From Minisyncoccota bacterium (GTDB lineage: Bacteria > Patescibacteriota > Minisyncoccia > 2-02-FULL-40-12 > GWA2-44-9), in NCBI GenBank assembly GCA_018062285.1, contig JAGOSO010000001.1, forward strand, positions 32,773-96,772: a DNA stretch of 64,000 bases, read 5' to 3'. Positions within the stretch are counted from its first letter, which is position 1; each line of letters starts with the position of its first letter. Below the pieces are notes generated by a model that saw only the letters and a program-made list of their open reading frames with translations, made no database searches and had not been told where the DNA came from. Shown here in pieces: positions 628 through 31,982 of the stretch. A program made the translations under genes and the position numbers.

Positions 628-1233
628 TCAACGAGTGTCTTTGTAAAGACCGTGAATCGATAGATATTCCTCTGCTTGGGGAACCATTATACCGCTGATT
701 GATTCGCCAGATGCGACCCGTCGTCGAATCTCTTGGCTCGACGCACCTTGTTCAGCCTCGAGACTCAAGACAACACTGTGCGGTGGCAAATCTTCTGGCT
801 GAATTACGTAGCCCGGCCTCTGGATGACCGCGAAATTGAAGGTCTCCCAAACAAGATCCGCTTTCACCCAATGTTGGACATGTGACTGGCCAGAAGCTCC
901 GCCACAGATTAGATCCCCACCAACAACATGGAATATATCTCCTTCACTGGCGAACATCTCTTGAAGCTCGTAACACTTGGTGAACACGGACCGAGTAAGA
1001 TCAAAATCTTCAACTCGCACTCGATTCGGATCTAGCCCAAGAAGAGAAAGCTTCGTCATGGCTAAGCGATGGGCCGAGTCGACATTGTTTGTCGACAGCT
1101 TATCTGGTCGCAGGCCACAGATGATGACCAAAACTAGGTCGAAATACTGGAGTAGTAGTTCAACAATCTTGCGATGGTGTAAACCAAACGGATTGAAACT
1201 ACCACCAAACAAAGCAACTTTTTTTCTGGTCAT
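628..1233 (-). CDS. nadD: nicotinate/nicotinamide mononucleotide adenylyltransferase (NadD/NMNAT family)
   Basis: 201 aa. N-terminal GGSFNPFGLHH matches the GGxFxPxHxxH nucleotidyltransferase motif of NadD. GGAGG RBS 7 nt upstream of the ATG. Confidence 0.8.
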   Translation of the reverse strand: MTRKKVALFGGSFNPFGLHHRKIVELLLQYFDLVLVIICGLRPDKLSTNNVDSAHRLAMTKLSLLGLDPNRVRVEDFDLTRSVFTKCYELQEMFASEGDIFHVVGGDLICGGASGQSHVQHWVKADLVWETFNFAVIQRPGYVIQPEDLPPHSVVLSLEAEQGASSQEIRRRVASGESISGIMVPQAEEYLSIHGLYKDTR

Positions 1234-1278
1234 ACTCGGACCTCCTTTCTGATCGTTAAAATCTGAACCAAACTTTTG

Positions 1279-1320
1279 GAACAGAGATTTAGAACGAAAT
1301 TATTCGTTACAAATCTCTGT
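1279..1320. promoter_or_regulatory. 42-bp near-perfect inverted repeat (AACAGAGATTTGTAACGAA-TAAT-TTCGTTCTAAATCTCTGTT) in the nadD upstream region
   Basis: 19-bp arms with 2 mismatches and a 4-nt centre, read directly from the sequence. It lies between the G/C hairpin at 1333-1368 and the nadD RBS. It does not fit the GT-N7-AC NrtR motif. Confidence 0.3.
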
Positions 1321-1332
1321 TTTAAAAATTTG

Positions 1333-1368
1333 TCAGGGGGGGGCGCACATAGCGCCCCCCCTGACCGA
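1333..1368 (-). terminator. G8/C7 stem-loop (GTCAGGGGGGGGCGC-acata-GCGCCCCCCCTGAC) downstream of the 1378..2412 gene
   Basis: Near-perfect 15-bp GC stem seen in the sequence. A/T-rich tract follows on the minus strand. Possible terminator or attenuator between the amidohydrolase gene and nadD. Confidence 0.4.
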
Positions 1369-1377
1369 GAGAAGGCC

Positions 1378-2412
1378 TCAGGAAAAAATGAGCTGGTCGA
1401 TGGCTTCGTAGTCAGTCGAGTCGACCACATGCGCTCCGCGTTCTTGAAACCGCGTGAGCATATTTTCCATGTGCTCGGTGTAGTCGACCACACCCGGAAC
1501 CACAACTGGAGTCATGCAGTCCCGCAAGAAAACGACCTTGTCGGCAAAAGACGGATCCATCTCAATCAGACCAGTCAATAGATCATCGCCGCTTGCAGGA
1601 ACACAATGACTCCCAGCTTCACCGTCCAAAAAGGTGCGATGAGAGGAGCTGATCTTGTTGATCAACTCAACGTTCCTCTCTGCCCCGACAATCTGACCAC
1701 CGGAGTGTGTTGTCGTAACTTCGGGGGCAAAAATGCTGTAGTGCTCTGTGAGCGGGTTCTCACCCTTCAGAATGATTGGGTTATTCACTCCGCGAACGAA
1801 TCCGTGGAACAAACGAACCTCCTCAATCAGGCCTGCCAACCTGTGCCCATAAGAGCCTTTTAGGCAATGGTAGGGCCAAATTGTCAGTGGCGGCTTGCCA
1901 GCTCTCTCGAGCTGCTCGCAGTAATAGATGAACTGCTTTCGGAGCCAATCGACACCCACCCCAAGCTGATAGGCAAACAACGGGTTGGGTCGGTAGTTCC
2001 GGCGGTACTCATCGGCAGTGATTTGCGTGTGTGGCGCCGGATGATTCCCGCTTGCGTCGATGTGTGCCACTGGGAAAAAAATCTGAAACGGCACATGAGT
2101 GTCCATCGTATTGATGAACTGTGTGATGCACGGAAGATATCGATAACGGAACTCGCTTCTTCGGCGCAAAGCATCCATGGCGCCTGTGCCACTGCGACCG
2201 GCGACGAACAGGGCCCCATCCAGATAGTCGAAGTCCGACTGATCATCGATATCCAGAGCGTAGATTACTCGTGAATCCTGAGACGCCCGAGTAATGTCGT
2301 ATCCATCACGCCAGTAGTTGGCGGCGGCCATCAGAACTGCCGGATCGGGCCGGTAGGACGACACGTAGGCATTCTTGGGATCATAGTGCGGAGGCAACTG
2401 AAATTCTCGCAT
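1378..2412 (-). CDS. isochorismatase-fold cysteine hydrolase, PncA(nicotinamidase)-like, with ~70-aa N-terminal extension
   Basis: 344 aa. Paralogous to the 6859..7686 product: WPYHCLKGSYGH vs WPAHCLIGTWGH, NPLTEHYSIF vs NPWTEHYGAL, GEAGSHCV vs GEASSHCV, LRDCMTPVVVPGVVDY vs LEDCMSPVPAIPGVVDF. Retains a D (IDDQSDF), a K (ILKGENP) and a C (SHCV), plus DTH...AH metal-ligand-like residues. GGAGAGGAAG RBS. Confidence 0.6.
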   Translation of the reverse strand: MREFQLPPHYDPKNAYVSSYRPDPAVLMAAANYWRDGYDITRASQDSRVIYALDIDDQSDFDYLDGALFVAGRSGTGAMDALRRRSEFRYRYLPCITQFINTMDTHVPFQIFFPVAHIDASGNHPAPHTQITADEYRRNYRPNPLFAYQLGVGVDWLRKQFIYYCEQLERAGKPPLTIWPYHCLKGSYGHRLAGLIEEVRLFHGFVRGVNNPIILKGENPLTEHYSIFAPEVTTTHSGGQIVGAERNVELINKISSSHRTFLDGEAGSHCVPASGDDLLTGLIEMDPSFADKVVFLRDCMTPVVVPGVVDYTEHMENMLTRFQERGAHVVDSTDYEAIDQLIFS

Positions 2413-2539
2413 TTCTTCCTCTCCTTCTCTTTTGTAAAGAACCTTTTCCTTGCGTTTTCGAATAAAACAAGGGAATTATGGCCCATCAGCCCCAATTCTC
2501 TTGTCTCATTAAAACCTTCTCAAATTAAGCCATATAATA

Positions 2540-2570: not shown

Positions 2571-2600
2571 CCTATGTCCCATCTTACTCCCACGAGCCTG

Positions 2601-2621
2601 TTATTGTCAATAGTACACTAA
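2601..2621. promoter_or_regulatory. NrtR-type operator (TTATTGT-CAATAGT-ACACTAA; GT-N7-AC core), slightly degenerate
   Basis: Same 21-bp palindrome family as 3368-3388, 7745-7765 and 7791-7811. Lies upstream of the PncA-like 1378..2412 gene. Its reverse complement carries a TTGACA -35 hexamer followed 17 nt later by GTAAGA/TAAGAT. Confidence 0.5.
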
Positions 2622-2635
2622 CTCTTGGCAAAAAA

Positions 2636-3358
2636 TTAAAGAACATCAATCTGCATAACTCGACCAGAACTAAACTTGTACAATTGAGCTGGTCGCCAAC
2701 GCTGGCCACGACGCTCATTTGCCGACTTCTCCAAGACATCAAGCTTTAATATCTTCTTTCTAAAATTTCTCTTATCCACTCCCCTATCAAGGATAGCCTC
2801 ATAGGCATTCTCGAGTTCAGTTAAAGTAAATTCGTGAGGCATTAATTTACTGATGATGGTGGTAAAGGCAATCTTCGATCTTAATCGTTCAAGACCAACA
2901 GATATAATTTGGCGATGATCATAAGCCAACTTTGGCAAAGCACTCACAGGAAACCACTGAGACACGTCAGAATCTTTTTGCTCTTCTTTTGAAAAACTAG
3001 CCCATGGAGCAAGAGCTAAATAAGCTACTGCAACAACACGGCCACGAGGATCACGCTTAACTTCACTGAAAGTATAAAGTTGTTCCAAATAAATATTTCT
3101 TGGATCAATATGACCTTTGTCTTTTATAATGCGCCTTGTTGCTTCTTCGGCGTTTTCTTCTGGATGAATAAGCCCGCCAGGCAAACCATGAATATTATTA
3201 AAATAGGGCGGAAGGTTAACTGGTATTAAACGAACATACAACATGCCATCACGGAAAGTAAAAAGAACTGTATCCGTAGCGAGAACAGCAAAACGAATCT
3301 TTGATGTTGAATTTTTAGATGTGGCTTTAGTAGTTGCCATATAGAGACATCTTATCAT
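2636..3358 (-). CDS. nrtR: Nudix-domain transcriptional regulator, NrtR family (ADP-ribose-responsive repressor of NAD metabolism)
   Basis: N-terminal Nudix box GLPGGLIHPEENAEEATRRIIKDKGH (Gx5Ex7REUxEExGU). C-terminal ~90 aa is winged-helix-like with NFRKKILKL...RPAQLYKF. Flanked by NrtR-type operators. Probable real start is M7 at 3340; the transcript looks leaderless because the -10 TAAGAT overlaps the first in-frame ATG. Confidence 0.65.
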   Translation of the reverse strand: MIRCLYMATTKATSKNSTSKIRFAVLATDTVLFTFRDGMLYVRLIPVNLPPYFNNIHGLPGGLIHPEENAEEATRRIIKDKGHIDPRNIYLEQLYTFSEVKRDPRGRVVAVAYLALAPWASFSKEEQKDSDVSQWFPVSALPKLAYDHRQIISVGLERLRSKIAFTTIISKLMPHEFTLTELENAYEAILDRGVDKRNFRKKILKLDVLEKSANERRGQRWRPAQLYKFSSGRVMQIDVL

Positions 3359-3367
3359 GTTTCAATC

Positions 3368-3388
3368 TTAGTGTCAATAGTACACTTA
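3368..3388. promoter_or_regulatory. NrtR-type operator (TTAGTGT-CAATAGT-ACACTTA) overlapping the -35 of the nrtR promoter (autoregulation)
   Basis: Palindrome TAGTGT-N7-ACACTA. On the minus strand the site contains TTGACA, then 17 nt, then TAAGAT immediately before the nrtR start. Confidence 0.55.
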
Positions 3389-3393
3389 TCCAC

Positions 3394-3424
3394 ATAAAAA
3401 GCCGCCACGGTGTATTGTGGCGGC
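3394..3424 (-). terminator. rho-independent terminator of the kinase gene (GCCGCCAC-ggtgtatt-GTGGCGGC plus T-run on minus strand)
   Basis: 8-bp GC stem followed by TTTTT on the minus strand (AAAAA at 3396-3400 on plus), directly downstream of the stop at 3435. Confidence 0.6.
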
Positions 3425-3434
3425 GATATTGGCA

Positions 3435-5174
3435 CTATTTCATCCTCAGGGACCAGAGGTCTCCATTGAGAATATAGGTGACCCTATCTCCCCAATTAGA
3501 CAAGCTCATGTCGGTAGCAATAGTTCTGTCATCAATCTGATTAACCTGACCATTGCTCGGCACAAAGATTTTCATCTGGCCATCTTCGACAATTGTTGCA
3601 CAGACACCCTTTGGCAAAATAGCCACGTTGAGTTCTGGACCATCGGCTTTCTCTTTTGAAATTCGATGCGACTTATAGTCGCCACCAAAAAACAAATCAA
3701 ATTTCTGATACTCGCCCGCCCGATCAAGACAGACCACAGAAACAAACCTATTGCCTGCAGAACCGGCAACAACGCGTAAGCCATCCAACTCTGCAACCCT
3801 CACGAGGATTAAAGAGCTATCGGAAAAAGGAACAACAACAAATGTGGCACCCATAGCATCCTGCACACCACACCCATTGAACCAACGAGTGGAATTGGTC
3901 ATGACACCCCAAGTCTTACCAACCGATACGATTGGCTTACCCAAGAGATGCATTTTTACTTCCGTTAAGCCATTCTCGGTAACAGCGAAGAGGCGGTTCT
4001 CATATCTAAGAACACTTCTGGCTTTCAAAGAAAGATCCAGAAGTGTTAATTTGAGACTTCCCTCTTCAACATACTGAAAAATGGTTTGCTGGTTCATTAG
4101 ATCTGCAACCAGCCATCCATCATCTACTTTCACGACCTCACAAGCACGAGAACTAGCTGTGCTAATTTGGCGTTTAGTAGCGACATCAACAAGTGCTCCA
4201 GAAGCCAACAAGACAACTCCGCAATGGAAGAGTCTAACTACTGAATCGTTTGGACGGCTCAGTAGTTTCTCAAAAACCAGAACCCCACTCTTGCTTGTTG
4301 TCACTGTTCGCATAACTTTTGCAGCCAGTGGAACAGTCAGCCCAGTATCAAATGGCGATGGTGGTCTTTGCCTTTCACCTTTTTGAAATGTCGCTTCGTA
4401 CCAACTGAGAAGCGGGGCAGGAATAGCAGAGAAATCTCGCACCGCGCGATTCAATCTCACACCAGAAGAGAAAACTGACGCTCCGGCTTTCATTCTCCCT
4501 TCAAGATTCCCCCGATCAAAACCATCGAGTGTCCCCTTGTAGGGATGCAGGCCGGTGTAGATTTGGAATGTCACAACTCCCCACGAGAACCAATCAGTCT
4601 TGTGATCAAACGTCTTGGCGTGCCAATCGCGAATTGATGGCATGATTACTGAAGCTGGCCAACGGCCAAGCGCCCAGGAATCAACGTCTACAACATGTGG
4701 CTCTGGCTCCGACTTGCGTCGTGATGCAAACCAATTCAATTCATTGGCATCAACGAGCAGAGCATTCTGACTGTGGGCAAAATCCACAACCTGACGCATG
4801 CGATCAACTAGAGTCGATGCATTCTGGTTTGTGAATCCTTCCTTCTGCCAAAATTCATTGGTGAACACTCGTGAAAGTGGATCACCATCAACATATGGCA
4901 TATAGAAGCCGACTGGGTCACCTGCCAGAGAAAAAACAAGCCCTCTGGGAGAAACGACATATGAGTGATTGAACCCAGACAGTATTTTCAACTTGTCTGG
5001 GATGCCTTTTTGTCGCATCTCTTTTGGGTCAAGATACATCTTCACAACAGAGTCACCGACTCGATAAATCGATCCTTCGCCACCAGTGGCAATATGATCG
5101 CTCGGCCGAATCGTAACCGTACCACGACCTTCAAGAACAACTTGGGTATTCCCCCTCACGATAGCTGGGGCCAT
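3435..5174 (-). CDS. protein kinase-like protein (atypical Ser/Thr kinase), third gene of a TerY-P-like triad
   Basis: Start taken at M9 (ATG 5174) because GGAGGAGG lies 7 nt upstream and it overlaps the PP2C stop. Has a glycine-rich loop TGGEGSIYRV, lysine motif SVVKMY, a catalytic-loop-like HSQNALLVDANELNW and a DxD segment VVDVDSW. The C-terminal ~300 aa are uncharacterised. Confidence 0.5.
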   Translation of the reverse strand: MAPAIVRGNTQVVLEGRGTVTIRPSDHIATGGEGSIYRVGDSVVKMYLDPKEMRQKGIPDKLKILSGFNHSYVVSPRGLVFSLAGDPVGFYMPYVDGDPLSRVFTNEFWQKEGFTNQNASTLVDRMRQVVDFAHSQNALLVDANELNWFASRRKSEPEPHVVDVDSWALGRWPASVIMPSIRDWHAKTFDHKTDWFSWGVVTFQIYTGLHPYKGTLDGFDRGNLEGRMKAGASVFSSGVRLNRAVRDFSAIPAPLLSWYEATFQKGERQRPPSPFDTGLTVPLAAKVMRTVTTSKSGVLVFEKLLSRPNDSVVRLFHCGVVLLASGALVDVATKRQISTASSRACEVVKVDDGWLVADLMNQQTIFQYVEEGSLKLTLLDLSLKARSVLRYENRLFAVTENGLTEVKMHLLGKPIVSVGKTWGVMTNSTRWFNGCGVQDAMGATFVVVPFSDSSLILVRVAELDGLRVVAGSAGNRFVSVVCLDRAGEYQKFDLFFGGDYKSHRISKEKADGPELNVAILPKGVCATIVEDGQMKIFVPSNGQVNQIDDRTIATDMSLSNWGDRVTYILNGDLWSLRMK

Positions 5175-5175
5175 C

Positions 5176-6042
5176 TCAAACCTCCTCCGCCAGATCAATG
5201 ACTTGTTCGATTCTTACAACAGCGAAAGAAATGTCATCAATTGGGCCTCGCCCAACCTGATGAAAATCTTTAATGCCTCGAATCATTCTCCGTTTAGCAA
5301 ATTCGCCCGTAGTATTCTTGAAAGCCAAGAGCGAACTCACTGCTTCTTGCCATGAAACACCTTCGACCTGAGTTACACCGTCAGAAAAAACGGCAATAAA
5401 CTCAAGTTCGGAAAGTTTTTCACGACTTAACTCCACCACAAAACCTGATCGTGCATCTTGGAATGGAATTAGGTTAATATTTTCTTCTTCTACTCTGGAC
5501 GAGCACTGCTTGATAGACATAGTGGCCTCAACTACATTGCCACCATGAATCCTATCAATGAATGTGATGGCATCTGCATCATCATACGCCGGATAGAACG
5601 GAGCGTTCTTGGTCCAATCAGAACGGAACATCATTGTTTCCCCGTTGCGATAACGCAAAGCGATAACTCCGTCACCTTGAACATGGACAAAGCCACTATT
5701 CTGGTTAATGAAAATGTAGGCGCAGGTCGAAAGCATATCGACCCTATTCAACCCCAGCATTAGCTGAGTGGATTTAAGGGTCGCCTGTTGGGCACTCGCA
5801 ATCAAGCGAGAATCCATGTCCGCTCGACCGACAAAAAGATGTGAGTCTTTGAGAGCCTGCAATGTTGCCAAGGCAAGCACTCGCGCACCAACATCGGTAT
5901 TCCCACCAGTTGAGCATCCATCTGAAACAATGGCGTAAGCTTCTGTGCCATTCGATCCAGAAATGGAATAGTCTTGGCAGGGCTTCCCACTAGAATAATG
6001 GGCCGCCCCGATGTGGAAGTAATGGTCAGCATAAAGTTTCAC
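5176..6042 (-). CDS. PP2C-family Ser/Thr protein phosphatase (TerY-P triad phosphatase)
   Basis: 288 aa. GTG start with GGAGG 6 nt upstream. PP2C/SpoIIE-like motifs: AIVSDGCSTGGNTDVG, later GDGVIAL and FAVFSDGV. Confidence 0.6.
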   Translation of the reverse strand: MKLYADHYFHIGAAHYSSGKPCQDYSISGSNGTEAYAIVSDGCSTGGNTDVGARVLALATLQALKDSHLFVGRADMDSRLIASAQQATLKSTQLMLGLNRVDMLSTCAYIFINQNSGFVHVQGDGVIALRYRNGETMMFRSDWTKNAPFYPAYDDADAITFIDRIHGGNVVEATMSIKQCSSRVEEENINLIPFQDARSGFVVELSREKLSELEFIAVFSDGVTQVEGVSWQEAVSSLLAFKNTTGEFAKRRMIRGIKDFHQVGRGPIDDISFAVVRIEQVIDLAEEV

Positions 6043-6095
6043 GATAACCCTCCGATAAAAAATGGGGATGGCGCACGTGCCATCCCCATGCGGAC

Positions 6096-6845
6096 CTAGA
6101 TGGTCGCCGCAATGTTCTGACTCGGGCCGCCAGTGCCCAGGGATTGGGACTGGCTCGAGACAGACTGCGAAACAAACTGGGCGATTTTTGCCAGCTTGCC
6201 TTTTGTTGCATCACCGGCGTCGATGTATTTCATGCCGGTTTCGGCTTCGAACTTCTCAAGATAGCCCTTGCAAGACTGAGCGTTGATACCAATGAGCACA
6301 CCAACGAGAGATTCAATCTCTTCGCCGACAAGCCCACGGTCCATCTCGTCTTTGACCATGCTGAGCGTTGCGCTTGAAGTGTTGTCGCCTCCGTCGGTAA
6401 TGACGAAAACGATACCGTTGGCCAGAAAGTCCTGGCCCATCAACCTCTTGGCGTAAGCGTTGGTAGCGCCGACCGCCGAGAAGGCAGCATCGTACAGCGG
6501 AGTCCAGCCACCAGTCCGGAAATCCGGATAGGTGTTCGGGTCAATCTCCCCCAGTGGTTTGAATCCGTGAATTTCTTCGATGCTGTTCTTGAACATATCG
6601 GAGAACAACAGGACTCGCAGGAGAAGATTGTTAGAACGGGGCGACTTCTTACACGAATCGACTGCGGCGATAACGCACCGCCGCAGCTCATCCTTGAAGC
6701 CGCTCACCGAGCCACTGACATCAACCGCGATAGTCACGAGCGTGTACTCGGTCGAGGTCAGGTGATCAATACGAACCGCCGAAAACTGGAAGCCTTGCCG
6801 GCCACCAATCTTCGAGGTTTCCGTGCCGTCATTCATTCGGGGCAT
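6096..6845 (-). CDS. von Willebrand factor A domain protein, TerY-like (TerY-P triad vWA)
   Basis: 249 aa. MIDAS motif VDVSGSVSG (DxSxS), then ...GGWTPLYDAA... and ITDGGDN, typical of TerY-type vWA proteins. GAGAGGAGAG RBS. Start is only 13 nt after the stop of the upstream PncA-like gene. Confidence 0.6.
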   Translation of the reverse strand: MPRMNDGTETSKIGGRQGFQFSAVRIDHLTSTEYTLVTIAVDVSGSVSGFKDELRRCVIAAVDSCKKSPRSNNLLLRVLLFSDMFKNSIEEIHGFKPLGEIDPNTYPDFRTGGWTPLYDAAFSAVGATNAYAKRLMGQDFLANGIVFVITDGGDNTSSATLSMVKDEMDRGLVGEEIESLVGVLIGINAQSCKGYLEKFEAETGMKYIDAGDATKGKLAKIAQFVSQSVSSQSQSLGTGGPSQNIAATI

Positions 6846-6858
6846 GATGCTCTCCTCT

Positions 6859-7686
6859 CTACTTCATGAAATCGACAGAGTTCGTGACGGTCATTCCCAG
6901 ACGCGTCATGTCTTTGAGCCACGCACTGGCAATCGCTGGGAAGTCGACGACCCCCGGGATAGCCGGCACAGGACTCATGCAGTCTTCGAGCAGGTGGAAC
7001 TTCTTGATGTGTTCCTGACCGATGTTCTTCGCGATCTGATTGACCGTGGTCAGCACGCAGTGACTGGAAGCTTCGCCGCCAACCAGAACAATGTCGGCTT
7101 CGGCCATGGTGTTCAGGAACTCCGTGTTCAAACCCGTCGAAGGGTCATCGGGGTCAGGAACTTCGGCCATGAGCGCGCCATAGTGTTCGGTCCAGGGATT
7201 CGAGCCCTTGGTCACGTAGTCGACCATGGCGAATTCCTTGTCCGACCAATGCTGAAGTGCTTCGTTCAGAACAGAGTGGACGTTGTGTCCCCATGTTCCG
7301 ATGAGGCAATGCGCCGGCCAGATGCAAATCTGGTACAGACCCGATGCTTCGAGCGTCTTGGCATAGGCCAAGGCACGCGCTCGGAATTGCGGATTGCGCG
7401 TGGTCCAGATTCCGGCTTCGATGTCCGACGCCGAAATGATCGTGAACGGGTTCGGCTGTTTGCCGCGCTGGTCCATCCAGAAAACCGGATGGGCGATGTC
7501 GAGCAGACGATGGCTGTCCAACGTCACGTGGATATCGTCGAGCTTGTGCCCGATTCGATCCACGAGCTTGGCCAACCGCTTCATGTCCGCATCAGCTCCA
7601 GGAACCGGCAACGTCGCGCCGGGGATGTCGCAGAAGTCGTTCTGCGGATCAATCACCAACAAATGCACCTTGAGAACTTTGCTCAT
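6859..7686 (-). CDS. pncA: PncA-like nicotinamidase / isochorismatase-family amidohydrolase
   Basis: 275 aa. N-terminal LLVIDPQNDFC (PncA VDxQNDF catalytic-Asp motif). Also LDSHRLLDIAHP (metal-ligand DxH...H pattern), K in YVTKGSNP, catalytic Cys in GGEASSHCV. First gene of the operon that continues into vWA, PP2C and kinase. Confidence 0.7.
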   Translation of the reverse strand: MSKVLKVHLLVIDPQNDFCDIPGATLPVPGADADMKRLAKLVDRIGHKLDDIHVTLDSHRLLDIAHPVFWMDQRGKQPNPFTIISASDIEAGIWTTRNPQFRARALAYAKTLEASGLYQICIWPAHCLIGTWGHNVHSVLNEALQHWSDKEFAMVDYVTKGSNPWTEHYGALMAEVPDPDDPSTGLNTEFLNTMAEADIVLVGGEASSHCVLTTVNQIAKNIGQEHIKKFHLLEDCMSPVPAIPGVVDFPAIASAWLKDMTRLGMTVTNSVDFMK

Positions 7687-7744
7687 AACTACCTCTTCTT
7701 TCCTTTGTTTGATTGTTAACGAGCTGTCCGTGTCTTATTTGTAC

Positions 7745-7765
7745 ATAGTGTATTTAGTACACTAT
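7745..7765. promoter_or_regulatory. NrtR-type operator (ATAGTGT-ATTTAGT-ACACTAT) near the -10/+1 of the pncA-like operon promoter
   Basis: Perfect 7-bp arms TAGTGT(A)/ACACTA with a 7-nt spacer (GT-N7-AC core). It sits about 45-60 nt upstream of the 7686 start codon. Confidence 0.5.
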
Positions 7766-7790
7766 GAGGGAAGACTAGCAGACCCTTGTC

Positions 7791-7811
7791 TTAGTGTCAA
7801 TAGTACACTTA
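7791..7811. promoter_or_regulatory. NrtR-type operator (TTAGTGT-CAATAGT-ACACTTA) upstream of the pncA-like/TerY-P operon, divergent to ychF
   Basis: Identical to the site at 3368-3388. Contains a TTGACA -35 on the minus strand. Confidence 0.5.
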
Positions 7812-7908
7812 TTAACAGGGGCAGGAGAGGGGATTTAAAAAATCTTTTAGAAATAAATAAAAACTATGACATGGTTGGTTTTTCGTGGTTTTCTGGTACA
7901 ATAAAGGC

Positions 7909-8995
7909 CATGTTATCAATCGGAATCGTGGGTTTGCCAAACGTTGGGAAGAGTACCCTCTTCAAGGCACTGACCAATAAACAAATAGATATTCAGAACT
8001 ATCCTTTCACCACCATCGACCCAAATGTCGGTGTTGTTGCCGTACCCGATGAGCGTATCGACAAGTTGGCCGAATTCTCGGGGACAAAAAAGAAAGTCTT
8101 CACAACTATCGAATTTATCGACATTGCCGGCCTAGTTAAGGGCGCTTCTCAGGGCGAAGGTTTGGGTAATAAATTTTTAGCCAACATTCGTGAGGCTGAT
8201 GCTATCGCCCAAGTTGTTCGTGCTTTCAACGACGACAATATTACCCACGTTCACAGTCGCGTAAATCCAGCCGAAGATATCGGAATCATAAATACTGAGC
8301 TCATTCTTGCTGACTCTGATACCGTAGCAAAGCGCATGGAAAAAACTTCTAAGCTAGCTCGTGCTGGTGATAAACTTGGTGTCCTTGAAATGGCTGGCCT
8401 TGAAAGATTCAAGAAACAACTAGATGCAGGCAATCTTCTCTATCATCTAACCTTAACGGAAGACGAGCAAAGGTTGATGAAAGAACTCAATCTCCTTACA
8501 GGTAAAAAATTCGTTTATGTTGTAAATGTTTCTGAGGACCAGCTCATTAGTCAGTGGCAGCCACCCCAAGAACTCATTGAGGCTATGGGTGGATCGCCTT
8601 ACGTTATCATGTGCAACAAGCTTGAATTAACCCTCTCTGAAGTTTCTCCGGAAGAAAAAGTTGAATATTTAAAAGAATTTAATCTACCAGAATCTGGCTT
8701 AGACACTTTAATTAAAAAAGGATATTACACTCTCGGACTTTTAACTTTCCTAACCACTGGTGTTGAAGAAACTCGCGCCTGGACCGCTCACCAAGGCGAC
8801 TTAATCCCTGTTGCTTCTCGTGCCATCCACACTGACTTTGAACGCCTCTTTATCCGCGCCGAAGTCATCAACTGGCAAGTCTTATTAGAAGCCGGATCAT
8901 ACGCCAACGCTCGCACCAAAGGCCTCGTCAAAATCGTCGGCCGAGACTACGTTATTCAAGAAGGCGACGTCGTAGATATACTCATTGGTAAATAA
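7909..8995 (+). CDS. ychF: ribosome-binding ATPase YchF (Obg-family GTPase)
   Basis: [22 protein letters not shown] (G1/P-loop), [12 protein letters not shown], and a C-terminal TGS-like domain. The longer track ORF 7394..8995 is an upstream read-through. A TG-extended -10 TACAAT sits 8 nt before the ATG, so the transcript looks leaderless. Confidence 0.9.
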
Positions 8996-28796: not shown

Positions 28797-31700
28797 TTAC
28801 TCAAAATTATGACTGTTTAGTAGCTCTTGGCTGAGCACCTCGCGGTGCGTACACCTAAGCCCTATCAACCTCGTAATCTACAAGGAGTCTAAGAAATCTA
28901 ATCTTGGGGCCCGTTTCGTACTTATATGCTTTCAGTACTTATCGGCACCGAACATAGCTACCCAGCGCTGCTCTTGGCAGAACAGCTGGCAGACCAGAGG
29001 TTCGTTCATCTCGGTCCTCTCGTACTAGAGACAACCCCCCTCAAATTTCAACGCCCGCACCAGATATGGACCAACCTGTCTCACGACGGTTTGAACCCAG
29101 CTCGCGTACCCTTTTAATTGGCGAACAGCCAAACCCTTGGGGCCTTCTTCAGTCCCAGGATAGGGCGAGCCGACATCGAGGTGCCGAACACTGCCGTCGC
29201 TGTGAACGCTCGGGCAGTACTAGCCTGTTATCCCCGGAGTAGCTTTTATTTGTTGATCTTCGCCCCTCCTACGAGGTAGCGTCGGTTCACTAAGTTCTGC
29301 TTTCGCATCTGCGCGACACATCCGTCTTGCAGTTAAGCTGGCTTTTGCCTTTACGCTATCGTTCCGATGTCCATCCGGAACTAGCCAACCTTGATAAACG
29401 CCTCCATTACTCTTTAGGAGGCAAGTGCCCCACTTAAACTGCCTGCCAGGCACTGTCTCGATAACACCCTAACAAGGTGTAACAAATAAAAATCTAAAAT
29501 CACTCCAACTAAATTAGTACAATAATGCACTATTTAGTATTACCAGAGTTCACTTTAGCTTTTTATGTTTCACCCTCTTAGGGTGCTACCGGTTAGAGCT
29601 ACAAATCGTTAAAATGGGTGTTTCATTGGCGGATCCATCGGGCCCGAGAGCACGACTTCAAATCCTCCCCACTACGCTACGTATAACAACTCGTAGACCA
29701 ATACCAAGCTGCAGTGAAGCTTCCGGGGTCTTTCCGTCTAGGTGCGGGTAGTCGGCATCTTTACCGACATTGCATTTTCACCGAGCTATTGGCTGAGACA
29801 GTCCCCCAGTCGTTCCGCTATTCATGCGCGTGGGAACTTACCCCACAAGGTATTTCGCTACTTTTAGACAGTTATAGTTACTGCCGTCGTTCACCGGCGC
29901 TTCGGGCCTCCCCAGTACATCTTGCGACATACCAGTTCAACCGTTAACGTTCCGGCACCGGACAAGCGTCACCCCGTATACATCGCCTTGCGGCTTAGCA
30001 CGGAGTTGTGTTTTTGATAAACAGTCGCCAGGGGTTCTTTCGCTGCGGCCCCCATCATCTTGCGATGAAAAGGGCAGGCCTTATACCGAAGGTACGGCCG
30101 CTTTTTTGCCGAGTTCCTTAGCCAATAATCACTCGTTCGCCTTAGTACACTGATACTAGTCCACCTGTGTCGGTTTTGCGGTACGTTTCCAATGTTGATA
30201 ATCTTAGAAGTTTTTCTTGGAAGCGTGCTCAGTTGAATTTCGTCTTGCGACAATTCGTAAGGCGCTCGGATGTGTCTTGCGACTGGACGTGGATTTTCCT
30301 GCGTCCCACCCTCACGCTATACCCGTTAAATCCGATTATACGGTCAACCTACAACTCTCCGTCACTCCTTCGATCAACACTGGAGGGCCAGAATATTAAC
30401 TGGCTGTCCATTATGATCGGTGGCCCTAAAGCCACCTTACACTTAGGCACGCCTAACCCTCCGATGATTGCCATCGCGGAGGAAACCTTGGACTTACGGC
30501 GGTGATGGTTTTCACATCACATGCGGTTACTCATCCCAACATTCTCCCTTCTCAACGCTCCAGCAAACTTCACAGTTCACCTTCACAGCAGTTGAGAATG
30601 CTCCCCTACCACTCGTACAAGTAAATGTACGAATCCACAATTTCGGTATTATGCTTAGCCCCTATACATTTTCGGCGCACATTGCCTCTCCGTCTTGCGA
30701 CGGAATCGAGTAGTGAGCTATTACGCACTCTTTAAAGGATGGCTGCTTCTAAGCCAACCTCCTACCTGTCTAAGGCAACGAACTTCCTTTTCACTTAGCA
30801 TAAATTTTGGGACCTTAATTTGTGATCTGGGCTGTTTCCCTTGCGTACACGAAGCTTAGCCCTCGCGTACTCACTGGCATAGATTTCATGAAGGTATTCG
30901 GAGTTTATTTGGTAGGCCTACCATTGCTGGCACGGCTAACCAATTAGTGCTCTACCCCCTTCATTACTCCATACCGCTGTCCCTAAAGACATTTCGGGGA
31001 GAACCAGCTATTACCAAGCTCGATAAGCTTTTCACTTCTAACCACAAGTCATCCGATGACATTGAGCGATCAAACGGTTCGGGCCTCCACTTATCTTTCG
31101 ATAAGCTTCACCCTGCTCATGGTTAGCTCGCCTGGCTTCGGGTCTTACCTATACCGCATAAAGACATTTCACCTATAAGCCCTAAAGCTTGTAGGTGAAA
31201 GTTCTTAAACGCGCTATTAACACTCGGTTTCCCTGTCCATACGTCCCAGTGGAACTTATAGTGCGGTGTAAGTAAACTCGTCGGGTCATTCTTCAATAGG
31301 CACACCGTTACCCGACGTCTTGCGACGGCAGGCTCCGGCTCTTTGTAGGCACACGGTTTCAGTTTCTATTTCACTCCCCTCGCCGGGGTTCTTTTCGCCT
31401 TTCCCTCACGGTACTGGTTCACTATCGATCACGAATAGTATTTAGCCTTATCCAGTAGTATGGACAAATTCACCCCGGACATTCTTATCCTGGGCTACTC
31501 AGGTAACAATACAGAAGTTCGTTTGGTTTCGGATACAGGACTGTCACCTGCTATGGTCGGCTGTTCCAAGGCCGTTCTCCTACCGCACGAATTTTTAACT
31601 TCTTATGAAGTTTTAACTCCACGCACGATGTGTCTGCGCGAAGTTAAAATTTCAAGTGTACTATCCCTATTACCCCACCCTCATTTTAGTAAACTAATTT

Positions 31701-31982
31701 GAAAATGGTTTAGGCTGTGCCGCTTTCGCTCGCCGCTACTCACGGTATCTAATTCTATTTATTTTCCTTTGGGTACTGAGATGTTTCACTTCCCCAAGTA
31801 TGCTTCCTGCTTGCGCAGAATAATCATGGTTCACATGATTGGGTTGCCCCATTCGGACATCTCCGGGTCATAGCTTGCTCGACAGCTCACCGAAGCTTTT
31901 CGCAGTCACGCAACGTCCTTCATAGCCTATTCGTGTCAAGGCATCCTCCGTGCGCCCTTTAATGTGGTCATTTTGCTTGACC
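28797..31982 (-). rRNA. rrl: 23S ribosomal RNA (about 3.2 kb; includes an AT-rich roughly 110-nt expansion segment near 29465-29580)
   Basis: The 5-prime end GGUCAAGCAAAAUGACCACAUUAAAGGGCGCACGGAGGAUGCCUUGAC is at about 31982. Domain V sequences are present (GGAUAACAGGCUAGUACUGCCCGAGCGUUCACAGCGACGGCAGUGUUCGGCACCUCGAUGUCGGCUC). The 3-prime helix-1 partner is near 28797-28815. End coordinates are approximate to about 15 nt. Confidence 0.85.

Follow-up and report, generated by a model that had tools for sequence, protein, structure and literature searches.

Predicted NrtR-family operators and promoter-like elements at a nicotinamidase locus of a Candidatus Paceibacteria genome

Genes and palindromic sites at the locus

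The locus described here lies in a 64,000-nt stretch of DNA (the window; contig JAGOSO010000001.1 of NCBI assembly GCA_018062285.1) from a genome of Candidatus Paceibacteria, a lineage of the candidate phyla radiation (CPR). All relevant genes are encoded on the minus strand. In order, they encode the nicotinamidase-like protein PncA1, a vWA-fold protein, a PP2C-type phosphatase, a kinase-like protein, a regulator of the NrtR family (nrtR), the second nicotinamidase-like protein PncA2 and a NadD-like protein. The plus strand carries ychF, with its start at 7910. The names of homologues and an identical NCBI protein assign the window to a metagenome-assembled genome of Candidatus Pacebacteria/Paceibacterota. 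Four palindromic sites are distributed over this region, and they are very probably operators of the NrtR-family repressor that is encoded between them.

Site 1 (2602-2620, minus strand, TATTGTCAATAGTACACTA) follows the stop codon of nrtR at a distance of 16 nt. Site 2 (3369-3387, minus strand, TAGTGTCAATAGTACACTT) is the predicted operator of the nrtR promoter. Upstream of PncA1, site 4 (or O1; 7792-7810, minus strand, again TAGTGTCAATAGTACACTT) is the predicted operator of the PncA1 promoter and is identical to site 2 over 24 nt. It is followed by site 3 (or O2; 7746-7764, no strand assigned, TAGTGTATTTAGTACACTA), a predicted NrtR operator that forms the perfect palindrome TAGTGTA-N5-TACACTA. 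All four sites conform to (T/A)nAGTGT-N7-ACACTnA or deviate from it by one base. An 18-mer search of the window with up to three mismatches returned exactly these four matches, where 0.03 are expected by chance. Looser palindrome scans of the window added further matches at chance level only, one of them within a tRNA.

An earlier note on this DNA had reported the four sites, assigned them the NrtR-type GT-N7-AC core and placed a -35 hexamer TTGACA in each of them. Direct reading and the pattern search recovered all four, and the core agrees with the published 21-bp palindrome (PMC2330246) and with the operators of the arabinose regulator AraR of Bacteroides thetaiotaomicron (BtAraR; PMC4666351). 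The hexamer is present on the minus strand of sites 1, 2 and 4 but is missing from site 3, which has the spacer ATTTAGT and whose reverse complement reads ACTAAATACACTA. The family-wide consensus of the motif is TAGTGTA-N5-TACACTA, which site 3 matches perfectly. Sites 1, 2 and 4 each show a single deviation from it, a G for a T of TACACTA, and this is the base that is required for TTGACA. Operator and promoter would thus limit one another, with the perfect consensus retained at the promoter-free site and one base sacrificed at the three sites bearing a -35 hexamer.

The NrtR-family regulator and its motif in related loci

The nrtR gene (2636..3340, minus strand) sits between the sites and encodes a protein of 234 aa with the architecture of the NrtR family, an N-terminal Nudix-like domain followed by the NrtR winged helix. 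Both domains are recognized by Pfam (NrtR_WHD, 1.7e-22, 79.7 bits at a cut-off of 27; NUDIX, 1.3e-07, 32.1 bits at a cut-off of 21.1). Read by eye, the Nudix box is degenerate and its catalytic glutamates are missing. The start codon is the ATG at 3340, as backed by an alignment of homologue N-termini. A longer open reading frame (ORF) from 3358 was rejected, since its start would fall inside the gene's own promoter and the homologue N-termini disagree with it.

The nearest relatives in the PDB are BtAraR (8e-33) and Shewanella NrtR (8e-27). In the crystal structure of BtAraR with DNA, Asp178, Lys179, Arg180, Asn181, Arg183 and Lys184 'define the GTGT motif' (PMC4666351). The corresponding recognition helix of the window protein, DKRNFRK, is identical to that of BtAraR and invariant in 25 CPR homologues; of the wing residues, Arg205 is kept and Lys204 is replaced by Trp. 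This helix and the higher similarity to BtAraR than to Shewanella NrtR would also suit an AraR-like sugar regulator instead of a regulator of nicotinamide adenine dinucleotide (NAD) metabolism. Such an assignment is given next to no weight, because pentose genes are absent from the neighbourhood, nicotinamidase-like genes and nadD are the predicted targets, and the clusters of relatives add pncB, nadE, pnuC and prs. In addition, the residues that close the nucleotide cleft of BtAraR, Gly89 and Leu67, are Arg and Lys in the window protein.

The same cleft bears on the effector. In Shewanella NrtR, the ADP-ribose contacts are Arg41, Asn43, Lys76 and Arg98. In the arabinose-binding BtAraR, Lys76 is replaced by Leu (Leu67) and Arg98 by Gly (Gly89), and the nucleotide cleft is closed. 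By alignment, the Lys76 and Arg98 equivalents of the window protein are K75 and R99, both invariant among homologues, so that the effector is likely of the nucleotide type. By analogy, ADP-ribose is the best guess. The Arg41 and Asn43 equivalents, which contact the phosphates of ADP-ribose, are Val41 and Leu43 and make the effector uncertain. The score against the NCBIfam equivalog NF050029 (ADP-ribose-responsive repressor), 125 bits at a cut-off of 400, identifies the protein as a family member and not as a demonstrated orthologue. A regulator that binds the sites and responds to another ligand (NAD, another nucleotide or a sugar phosphate) would agree with both observations and with the known NrtR-family members that have NAD or arabinose as effector, among them Corynebacterium NdnR, for which NAD was reported. 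We consider this alternative possible though rather unlikely, as the retained Lys and Arg argue for a nucleotide-sized, phosphate-bearing ligand and ADP-ribosylglycohydrolase genes occur in the clusters of relatives.

To place the motif in a wider context, it was followed across 171 loci (numbered L001 onwards), 170 of which encode NrtR homologues. The relatives among the matches listed are mostly 38-60% identical, and close relatives were obtained solely through exact-protein look-ups. With at most one mismatch, the first 165 loci (1.44 Mb) contain 133 motif matches. More than half of these (71/133) fall into the 250 nt that precede nrtR. They come from 54 of 154 loci, in many different phyla, and the site centres concentrate in the final 40 nt before the estimated nrtR start codon. 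Over all loci, 77 of 128 unique matches are located within 350 nt upstream of nrtR or a NAD gene (PncA-like, PncB, PnuC, NadD or ADP-ribosylglycohydrolase), against a background expectation of 5.8%. The published motif definition, the BtAraR structure and comparative genomics are three independent lines that agree on the sites as NrtR operators.

The embedded -35 hexamer follows a different distribution. Over the whole family, TTGACA occurs in 6 of 125 sites, with about 4.6 expected, which is chance level; embedding as a general property of NrtR operators was therefore rejected. Among loci with a NrtR identity of 54% or more, 7 of 16 sites embed it, versus 4 of 170 elsewhere (Fisher p = 2e-6); one of these seven is a near-copy of site 1 of the window. 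The fusion of operator and -35 hexamer is thus a clade-specific trait. A reading in which the repeats are only shared promoter modules, that is, -35 elements with flanks conserved for RNA polymerase or a sigma factor and no repressor, could draw on the three of four sites that combine TTGACA with a plausible -10 at 17-18 nt, and on the identity of sites 2 and 4. It is nevertheless very improbable: the best palindrome is site 3, which has no -35 hexamer, the dyad symmetry equals that of validated NrtR-family operators, and the palindrome adjoins nrtR in dozens of loci that span phyla, mostly without TTGACA.

The locus L081 (NCBI assembly GCA_034680565.1) encodes a NrtR that is ~64% identical to that of the window and is syntenic with it from PncA1 through the vWA, PP2C, kinase-like, nrtR and PncA2 genes to nadD, which is fused to NAD kinase in L081. 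Beyond nadD, L081 continues with ADP-ribosylglycohydrolase, pncB, prs and nadE; related gene clusters also include these four genes and pnuC. The NrtR proteins of L084 and L085 are 95% identical to the window protein overall and 100% over the C-terminal 220 residues, but their first 14 residues are unrelated (window 3299-3340 versus L084 2032-2073). In these loci, nrtR follows pnuC and a NadR-like kinase gene and lacks an operator of its own. The unrelated N-terminus and the changed context suggest a recombination junction exactly at the nrtR 5' end. Upstream of pnuC, L084 (318-372) carries the operator TAGTGTTGACAATACACTA with TTGACA in another register, flanked by a perfect 18-nt inverted repeat (TTAACACTACTCCCTTCT / AGAAGGGAGTAGTGTTAA).

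Promoter-like elements and the genes behind them

The nrtR promoter is predicted from a -35 hexamer inside site 2 (TTGACA, 3377..3372, minus strand) and an extended -10 element (TGaTAAGAT, hexamer 3349..3354, minus strand) at a spacing of 17 nt, with 10/12 matches to the consensus. The -10 ends 8 nt before the ATG at 3340, and this start lacks a Shine-Dalgarno sequence; the neighbouring genes starting at 7686 and 2412 have GAGG and GGAG boxes. In L081, the arrangement is TTGACA-17-TGaTACAAT-6-ATG, and a block of 26 nt including the operator is identical to the window. A comparable geometry is found in L001 (TTGACA-16-TATGAT-9-ATG) and L086 (TTGACA-18-TAGAAT-6-ATG). In the more distant loci L166-L170, the nrtR operator is placed directly after the -10 box. 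With a -10 box 6-9 nt before a homologue-backed start codon and no Shine-Dalgarno sequence, the nrtR mRNA appears to be leaderless or nearly so and autorepressed, as the earlier note had proposed. On the plus strand, ychF shows the leaderless geometry as well (window 7894-7912; TGgTACAAT, 7 nt, ATG at 7910), and leaderless starts may be common in this genome.

For PncA1, the -35 hexamer lies inside site 4 (TTGACA, 7800..7795, minus strand) and is followed after 17 nt by the putative extended -10 TGcTAGTCT (7772..7777, minus strand), with 9/12 matches overall and the TG extension present. Transcription is predicted to start near 7765, which would place site 3 at about +2 to +20. The L081 counterpart of site 4, AAGTGTAATGTTGACACTA, is found at the same relative place and also embeds TTGACA; TGaTAGCAT follows 18 nt downstream and aligns with the -10 of the window. 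The tandem operators are spaced by 46 nt in the window and by 47 nt in L081, so that the two tandem sites described ahead of the pncA-like gene recur in the same layout.

The third embedded hexamer, in site 1 (TTGACA, 2610..2605, minus strand), is followed by TAAGAT (2586..2581) after 18 nt, again with 10/12 matches. Sites 1, 2 and 4 thus all have a -35/-10 pair at 17-18 nt that is well placed with respect to a gene. The 17-nt spacing to the -10 that had been described for the sites applies to site 2 with TGaTAAGAT and, with a hexamer matching at 3/6 positions, to site 4; at site 1 the spacer is 18 nt. Repressor-over-promoter architecture, likewise claimed for every site, is predicted at sites 2 and 4, whose promoters are kept in L081. 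It does not extend to site 3, which has no -35 hexamer, and at site 1 the mechanism is uncertain.

At site 1, neither the embedded -35 hexamer nor its TAAGAT is kept in L081. A second promoter-like site, P2 (2534..2562, minus strand; TTGACA-17-TATTAT, 11/12), lies 40 nt downstream of site 1, is uncovered by any operator and is kept in L081 (8763-8791; TTGACA-17-TAATAT). P2 could accordingly be the real promoter of PncA2 and nadD. Site 1, its centre ~84 nt upstream of the P2 start, would then not occlude its embedded hexamer and would act as a roadblock, by looping or hardly at all, and a conserved hairpin in the leader would mainly control PncA2. Besides the better and conserved P2 and the conservation of that hairpin, this alternative is consistent with the lack of a terminator between nrtR and site 1 and with the layout 'stop codon, T6, ~9 nt, operator', which is common to six loci (window 2621-2638, L081, L166, L167, L169 and L170). 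Against it stand the 10/12 score of the window pair and a promoter-like pair of L081, TTGACT-17-TAATAT, that overlaps the operator in another register and suggests selection for some operator-overlapped promoter. On balance, it is a serious but not the favoured explanation. The run of T6-T7 after nrtR is kept in the six loci though the intergenic regions are otherwise unalignable; it could be an UP-like element or could belong to a terminator or roadblock.

The leader hairpin (GAGACAAGAGAAUUGGGGCUGAUGGGCCAUAAUUCCCUUGUUUU, window 2454-2515, minus strand) is long and lies ~12 nt past the predicted P2 start. L081 (8815-8860) keeps it between diverged flanks, with a fold z-score of -2.2 in each genome, and a terminator-like hairpin overlaps its 3' arm in L081. 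Judging from these two independent sequences only, it could be a cis-regulatory RNA or an attenuator. A riboswitch in the 160-nt PncA2 leader was rejected, as no known NAD riboswitch appeared in the Rfam scans: at gathering thresholds, the whole window yielded a 23S rRNA, a 5S rRNA and one tRNA only, and a permissive scan of 2350-2660 gave chance-level matches only. Between the post-nrtR operator and the next gene, L166 (~2060-2130), L167 (~4010-4070) and L169 (~1330-1400) have a leader block of their own in common, AAGTCGCGTT ... GCAAGTCCTGCTCGAAAA.

PncA2 (1378..2412, minus strand, 344 aa) has an isochorismatase-like fold of the nicotinamidase type. The AlphaFold2 model reaches a predicted local distance difference test score (pLDDT) of 95, and its top 27 Foldseek matches in the PDB are all nicotinamidases or pyrazinamidases. 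The candidate catalytic and metal-binding residues D56/D60, D104-x-H106, H182, H190, K216 and C270 do not vary among 30 homologues; they include candidates for the catalytic Asp, Lys and Cys. NCBI lists the identical protein under the name nicotinamidase. The nadD-like gene (628..1233, minus strand), a nicotinate-nucleotide adenylyltransferase by profile matches, is probably co-transcribed with PncA2; no terminator was detected between 1233 and 1378. An ORF at 1230..1505, which runs in a different frame across the 3' end of PncA2, was judged spurious.

PncA1 (6859..7686, minus strand) is the gene next to the tandem operators and encodes a nicotinamidase-like protein of 275 aa with weak matches to isochorismatase and PncA models. 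It is a paralogue of PncA2 (BLASTP 4e-30) and 88% identical to its L081 counterpart. The next gene (6096..6845, minus strand) encodes a vWA-fold protein of 249 aa with a DxSxS metal-site motif; its homologues are named YegL by JGI. No Pfam VWA match was obtained for this protein; its AlphaFold2 model (mean pLDDT 82) has integrin I domains, the PilB vWA domain and inter-alpha-inhibitor heavy chain 1 as best Foldseek matches in the PDB (E ~1e-8 to 1e-9). The PP2C-type phosphatase (5176..6042, minus strand, 288 aa; Pfam PP2C_2, 3.8e-14) follows, and the ATG of the kinase-like gene (3435..5174, minus strand, ~579 aa from the ATG at 5174; alternative start TTG at 5198) is found 1 nt past the PP2C stop codon. 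The Pkinase score of the kinase-like protein, 25 bits, is below the cut-off of 31.7 bits. Its C-terminal ~300 residues (window 3435-4300) match no family and, on visual inspection, contain no CxxC pairs, which sets them apart from the zinc ribbon or OB fold of TerY-P kinases. An intrinsic terminator (3401..3424, minus strand) stands after this gene, directly upstream of the nrtR operator; a hairpin occupies this place in L081 too.

Between the vWA and PP2C genes, a strong terminator-like hairpin is located (6062..6089, minus strand; 11 pairs and a T-run); L081 has a different hairpin of 13 pairs at the same position. The T-run is separated from the PP2C start codon by ~13 nt in the window, and no promoter-like site was found between terminator and PP2C start in the window or L081. 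The PP2C and kinase-like genes are therefore probably expressed by terminator read-through. Of the proposed pncA-like/TerY-P operon behind tandem sites, the tandem sites stand, but the operon is split by this position-conserved terminator after the vWA gene. The TerY-P label needs qualification. A TerY-like vWA protein and a PP2C phosphatase are present, but the PADLOC models including TerY-P gave no match for the vWA, PP2C and nicotinamidase-like proteins and only a weak mad6 match for the kinase-like protein, in which no C-terminal zinc ribbon is evident. Filing the group as a TerY-P defence system was rejected on the PADLOC result, and it is 'TerY-P-like' by domain content only.

A string of PP2C, a ~625-aa kinase-like protein, a ~350-aa nicotinamidase and a protein of 264-297 aa recurs in five loci from metagenomes or metagenome-assembled genomes (L166 4218-9152, L167 4096-8899, L168 2110-6809, L169 4139-9014, L170 4160-8936) and is next to nrtR in four of them. 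From this recurrence, the phosphatase/kinase pair seems to be functionally tied to a nicotinamidase paralogue. In L166 and L169, a Band_7 gene and a ~310-aa gene are encoded upstream of PP2C. Elsewhere in the window, the 23S rRNA match (28797-31965, minus strand) spans 3169 nt against a model of 2925 positions, which corresponds to an insertion of ~240 nt. The 5S rRNA adjoins it, and the Rfam scan detected no 16S rRNA anywhere in the window.

Proposed regulation and known systems

A repressor on a -35 box combined with autoregulation is a textbook design. In the mechanism proposed here, a NrtR dimer would read the AGTGT/ACACT half-sites with the recognition helix of its winged-helix domain. 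We infer a repressor role from operators that cover the -35 box and, at site 3, about +2 to +20. Bound to sites 2 and 4, which contain the -35 hexamer, NrtR would exclude RNA polymerase, and site 3 as the second operator of the PncA1 promoter would provide double repression. The nrtR gene would be autorepressed through site 2 on its leaderless or near-leaderless transcript. Site 1 would overlap a weaker promoter for PncA2 and nadD and may also block read-through from nrtR, with P2 escaping direct occlusion. Characterised NrtRs suggest by analogy that the repressor would be freed by an effector of the nucleotide type that arises from NAD breakdown, most probably ADP-ribose. Its release would induce nicotinamide salvage and the linked vWA, PP2C and kinase-like genes, the last two by read-through of the internal terminator. 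The predicted targets are thus both nicotinamidase-like paralogues, the vWA/PP2C/kinase-like group, nrtR itself and probably nadD.

Several of the above results weigh against this scheme. The family-wide frequency of TTGACA within the sites is at chance level, the -10 hexamer of the site-4 promoter matches the consensus at three positions only, and shuffled sequences yield about as many promoter-like matches overall as the region itself (10.5 versus 11). To these are added the absence of the embedded -35 hexamer of site 1 from L081, the better promoter P2 outside the operator, the low equivalog score and the two replaced ADP-ribose contacts.

A further proposal is that NrtR of Patescibacteria controls, beyond salvage enzymes, a conserved signalling module of nicotinamidase paralogue, TerY-like vWA, PP2C and kinase-like proteins. 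The module adjoins nrtR in the window, in L081 and, rearranged, in L166-L170; the proposal is speculative and unlikely. If true, ADP-ribose or NAD status would feed into a phosphorylation switch, perhaps as an answer to NAD depletion from phage attack or host dependence, and the clade-specific operator/-35 fusion would be a compact wiring of this switch in small genomes. To our knowledge, transcription factors are few in CPR bacteria and hardly any of their regulons have been characterised. The locus offers a clean, testable example from this group, with a known repressor family, four predicted operators, predicted promoters and a probably leaderless autoregulated mRNA. The link of NrtR to two unusual nicotinamidase paralogues and the vWA/PP2C/kinase-like group, kept in relatives, could mark regulated NAD salvage as key in host-dependent organisms.

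Among known systems, the TerY-P triad (Anantharaman et al. 2012, Gao et al. 2020, via PMC11090510) resembles the locus in its adjacent genes for TerY-like vWA, PP2C and Ser/Thr-kinase-like proteins. TerY-P kinases carry a C-terminal zinc ribbon, or an OB fold in the defence variant (PMC11090510). The kinase-like protein of the window, in contrast, is a sub-cut-off match whose C-terminal half shows no zinc-ribbon Cys pairs by eye. Other differences are the terminator that splits the vWA gene from the PP2C and kinase-like genes, and the location of the group within a NAD-salvage cluster and not a defence island.

BtAraR (PDB 5bs6 and related entries; PMC4666351) is the closest solved relative of the regulator. 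It shares the DKRNFRK helix and has tandem operators ahead of its main operon; the operators, AGTGT-N7-ACAC(T/C), were proven by gel shift and crystallography. It differs in sensing L-arabinose, in controlling pentose genes and in its filled cleft (Leu67, Gly89), where the window protein has Lys and Arg and NAD-gene targets. Autorepression was shown by experiment for NrtR of Mycobacterium smegmatis (PMC6800001), which represses its own gene and NAD genes via a palindrome near nrtR and whose binding is disrupted by ADP-ribose. In that case, the palindrome is GTTTTCGA-N7-TCGAAAAC, the targets are the de novo genes nadABC and not salvage genes, and a leaderless mRNA is not mentioned in the text of the paper.

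The literature searched contained no paper naming NrtR together with CPR or Patescibacteria and no earlier mention of a clade-specific operator/TTGACA fusion. The closest parallel is provided by the NrtR regulons of Rodionov et al. (2008), including Synechocystis Slr1690 and Shewanella SO1979 (PMC2330246). These have the same combination of a Nudix-like domain with a winged helix, and most of their motifs are 21-bp palindromes with the GT-N7-AC core. Their sites overlap promoters or lie between promoter and start codon, and the regulators control NAD salvage and universal NAD genes, pncA and nadD among them. The operator-over-promoter design is therefore not new and has been known for NrtR since 2008. 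The window differs from these regulons in its host, an uncultured CPR lineage, and in its targets, two very divergent nicotinamidase paralogues and the vWA/PP2C/kinase-like group. Its additions to the NrtR picture are modest, namely the clade-specific fusion of operator and -35 hexamer and the conserved link to the vWA/PP2C/kinase-like group.

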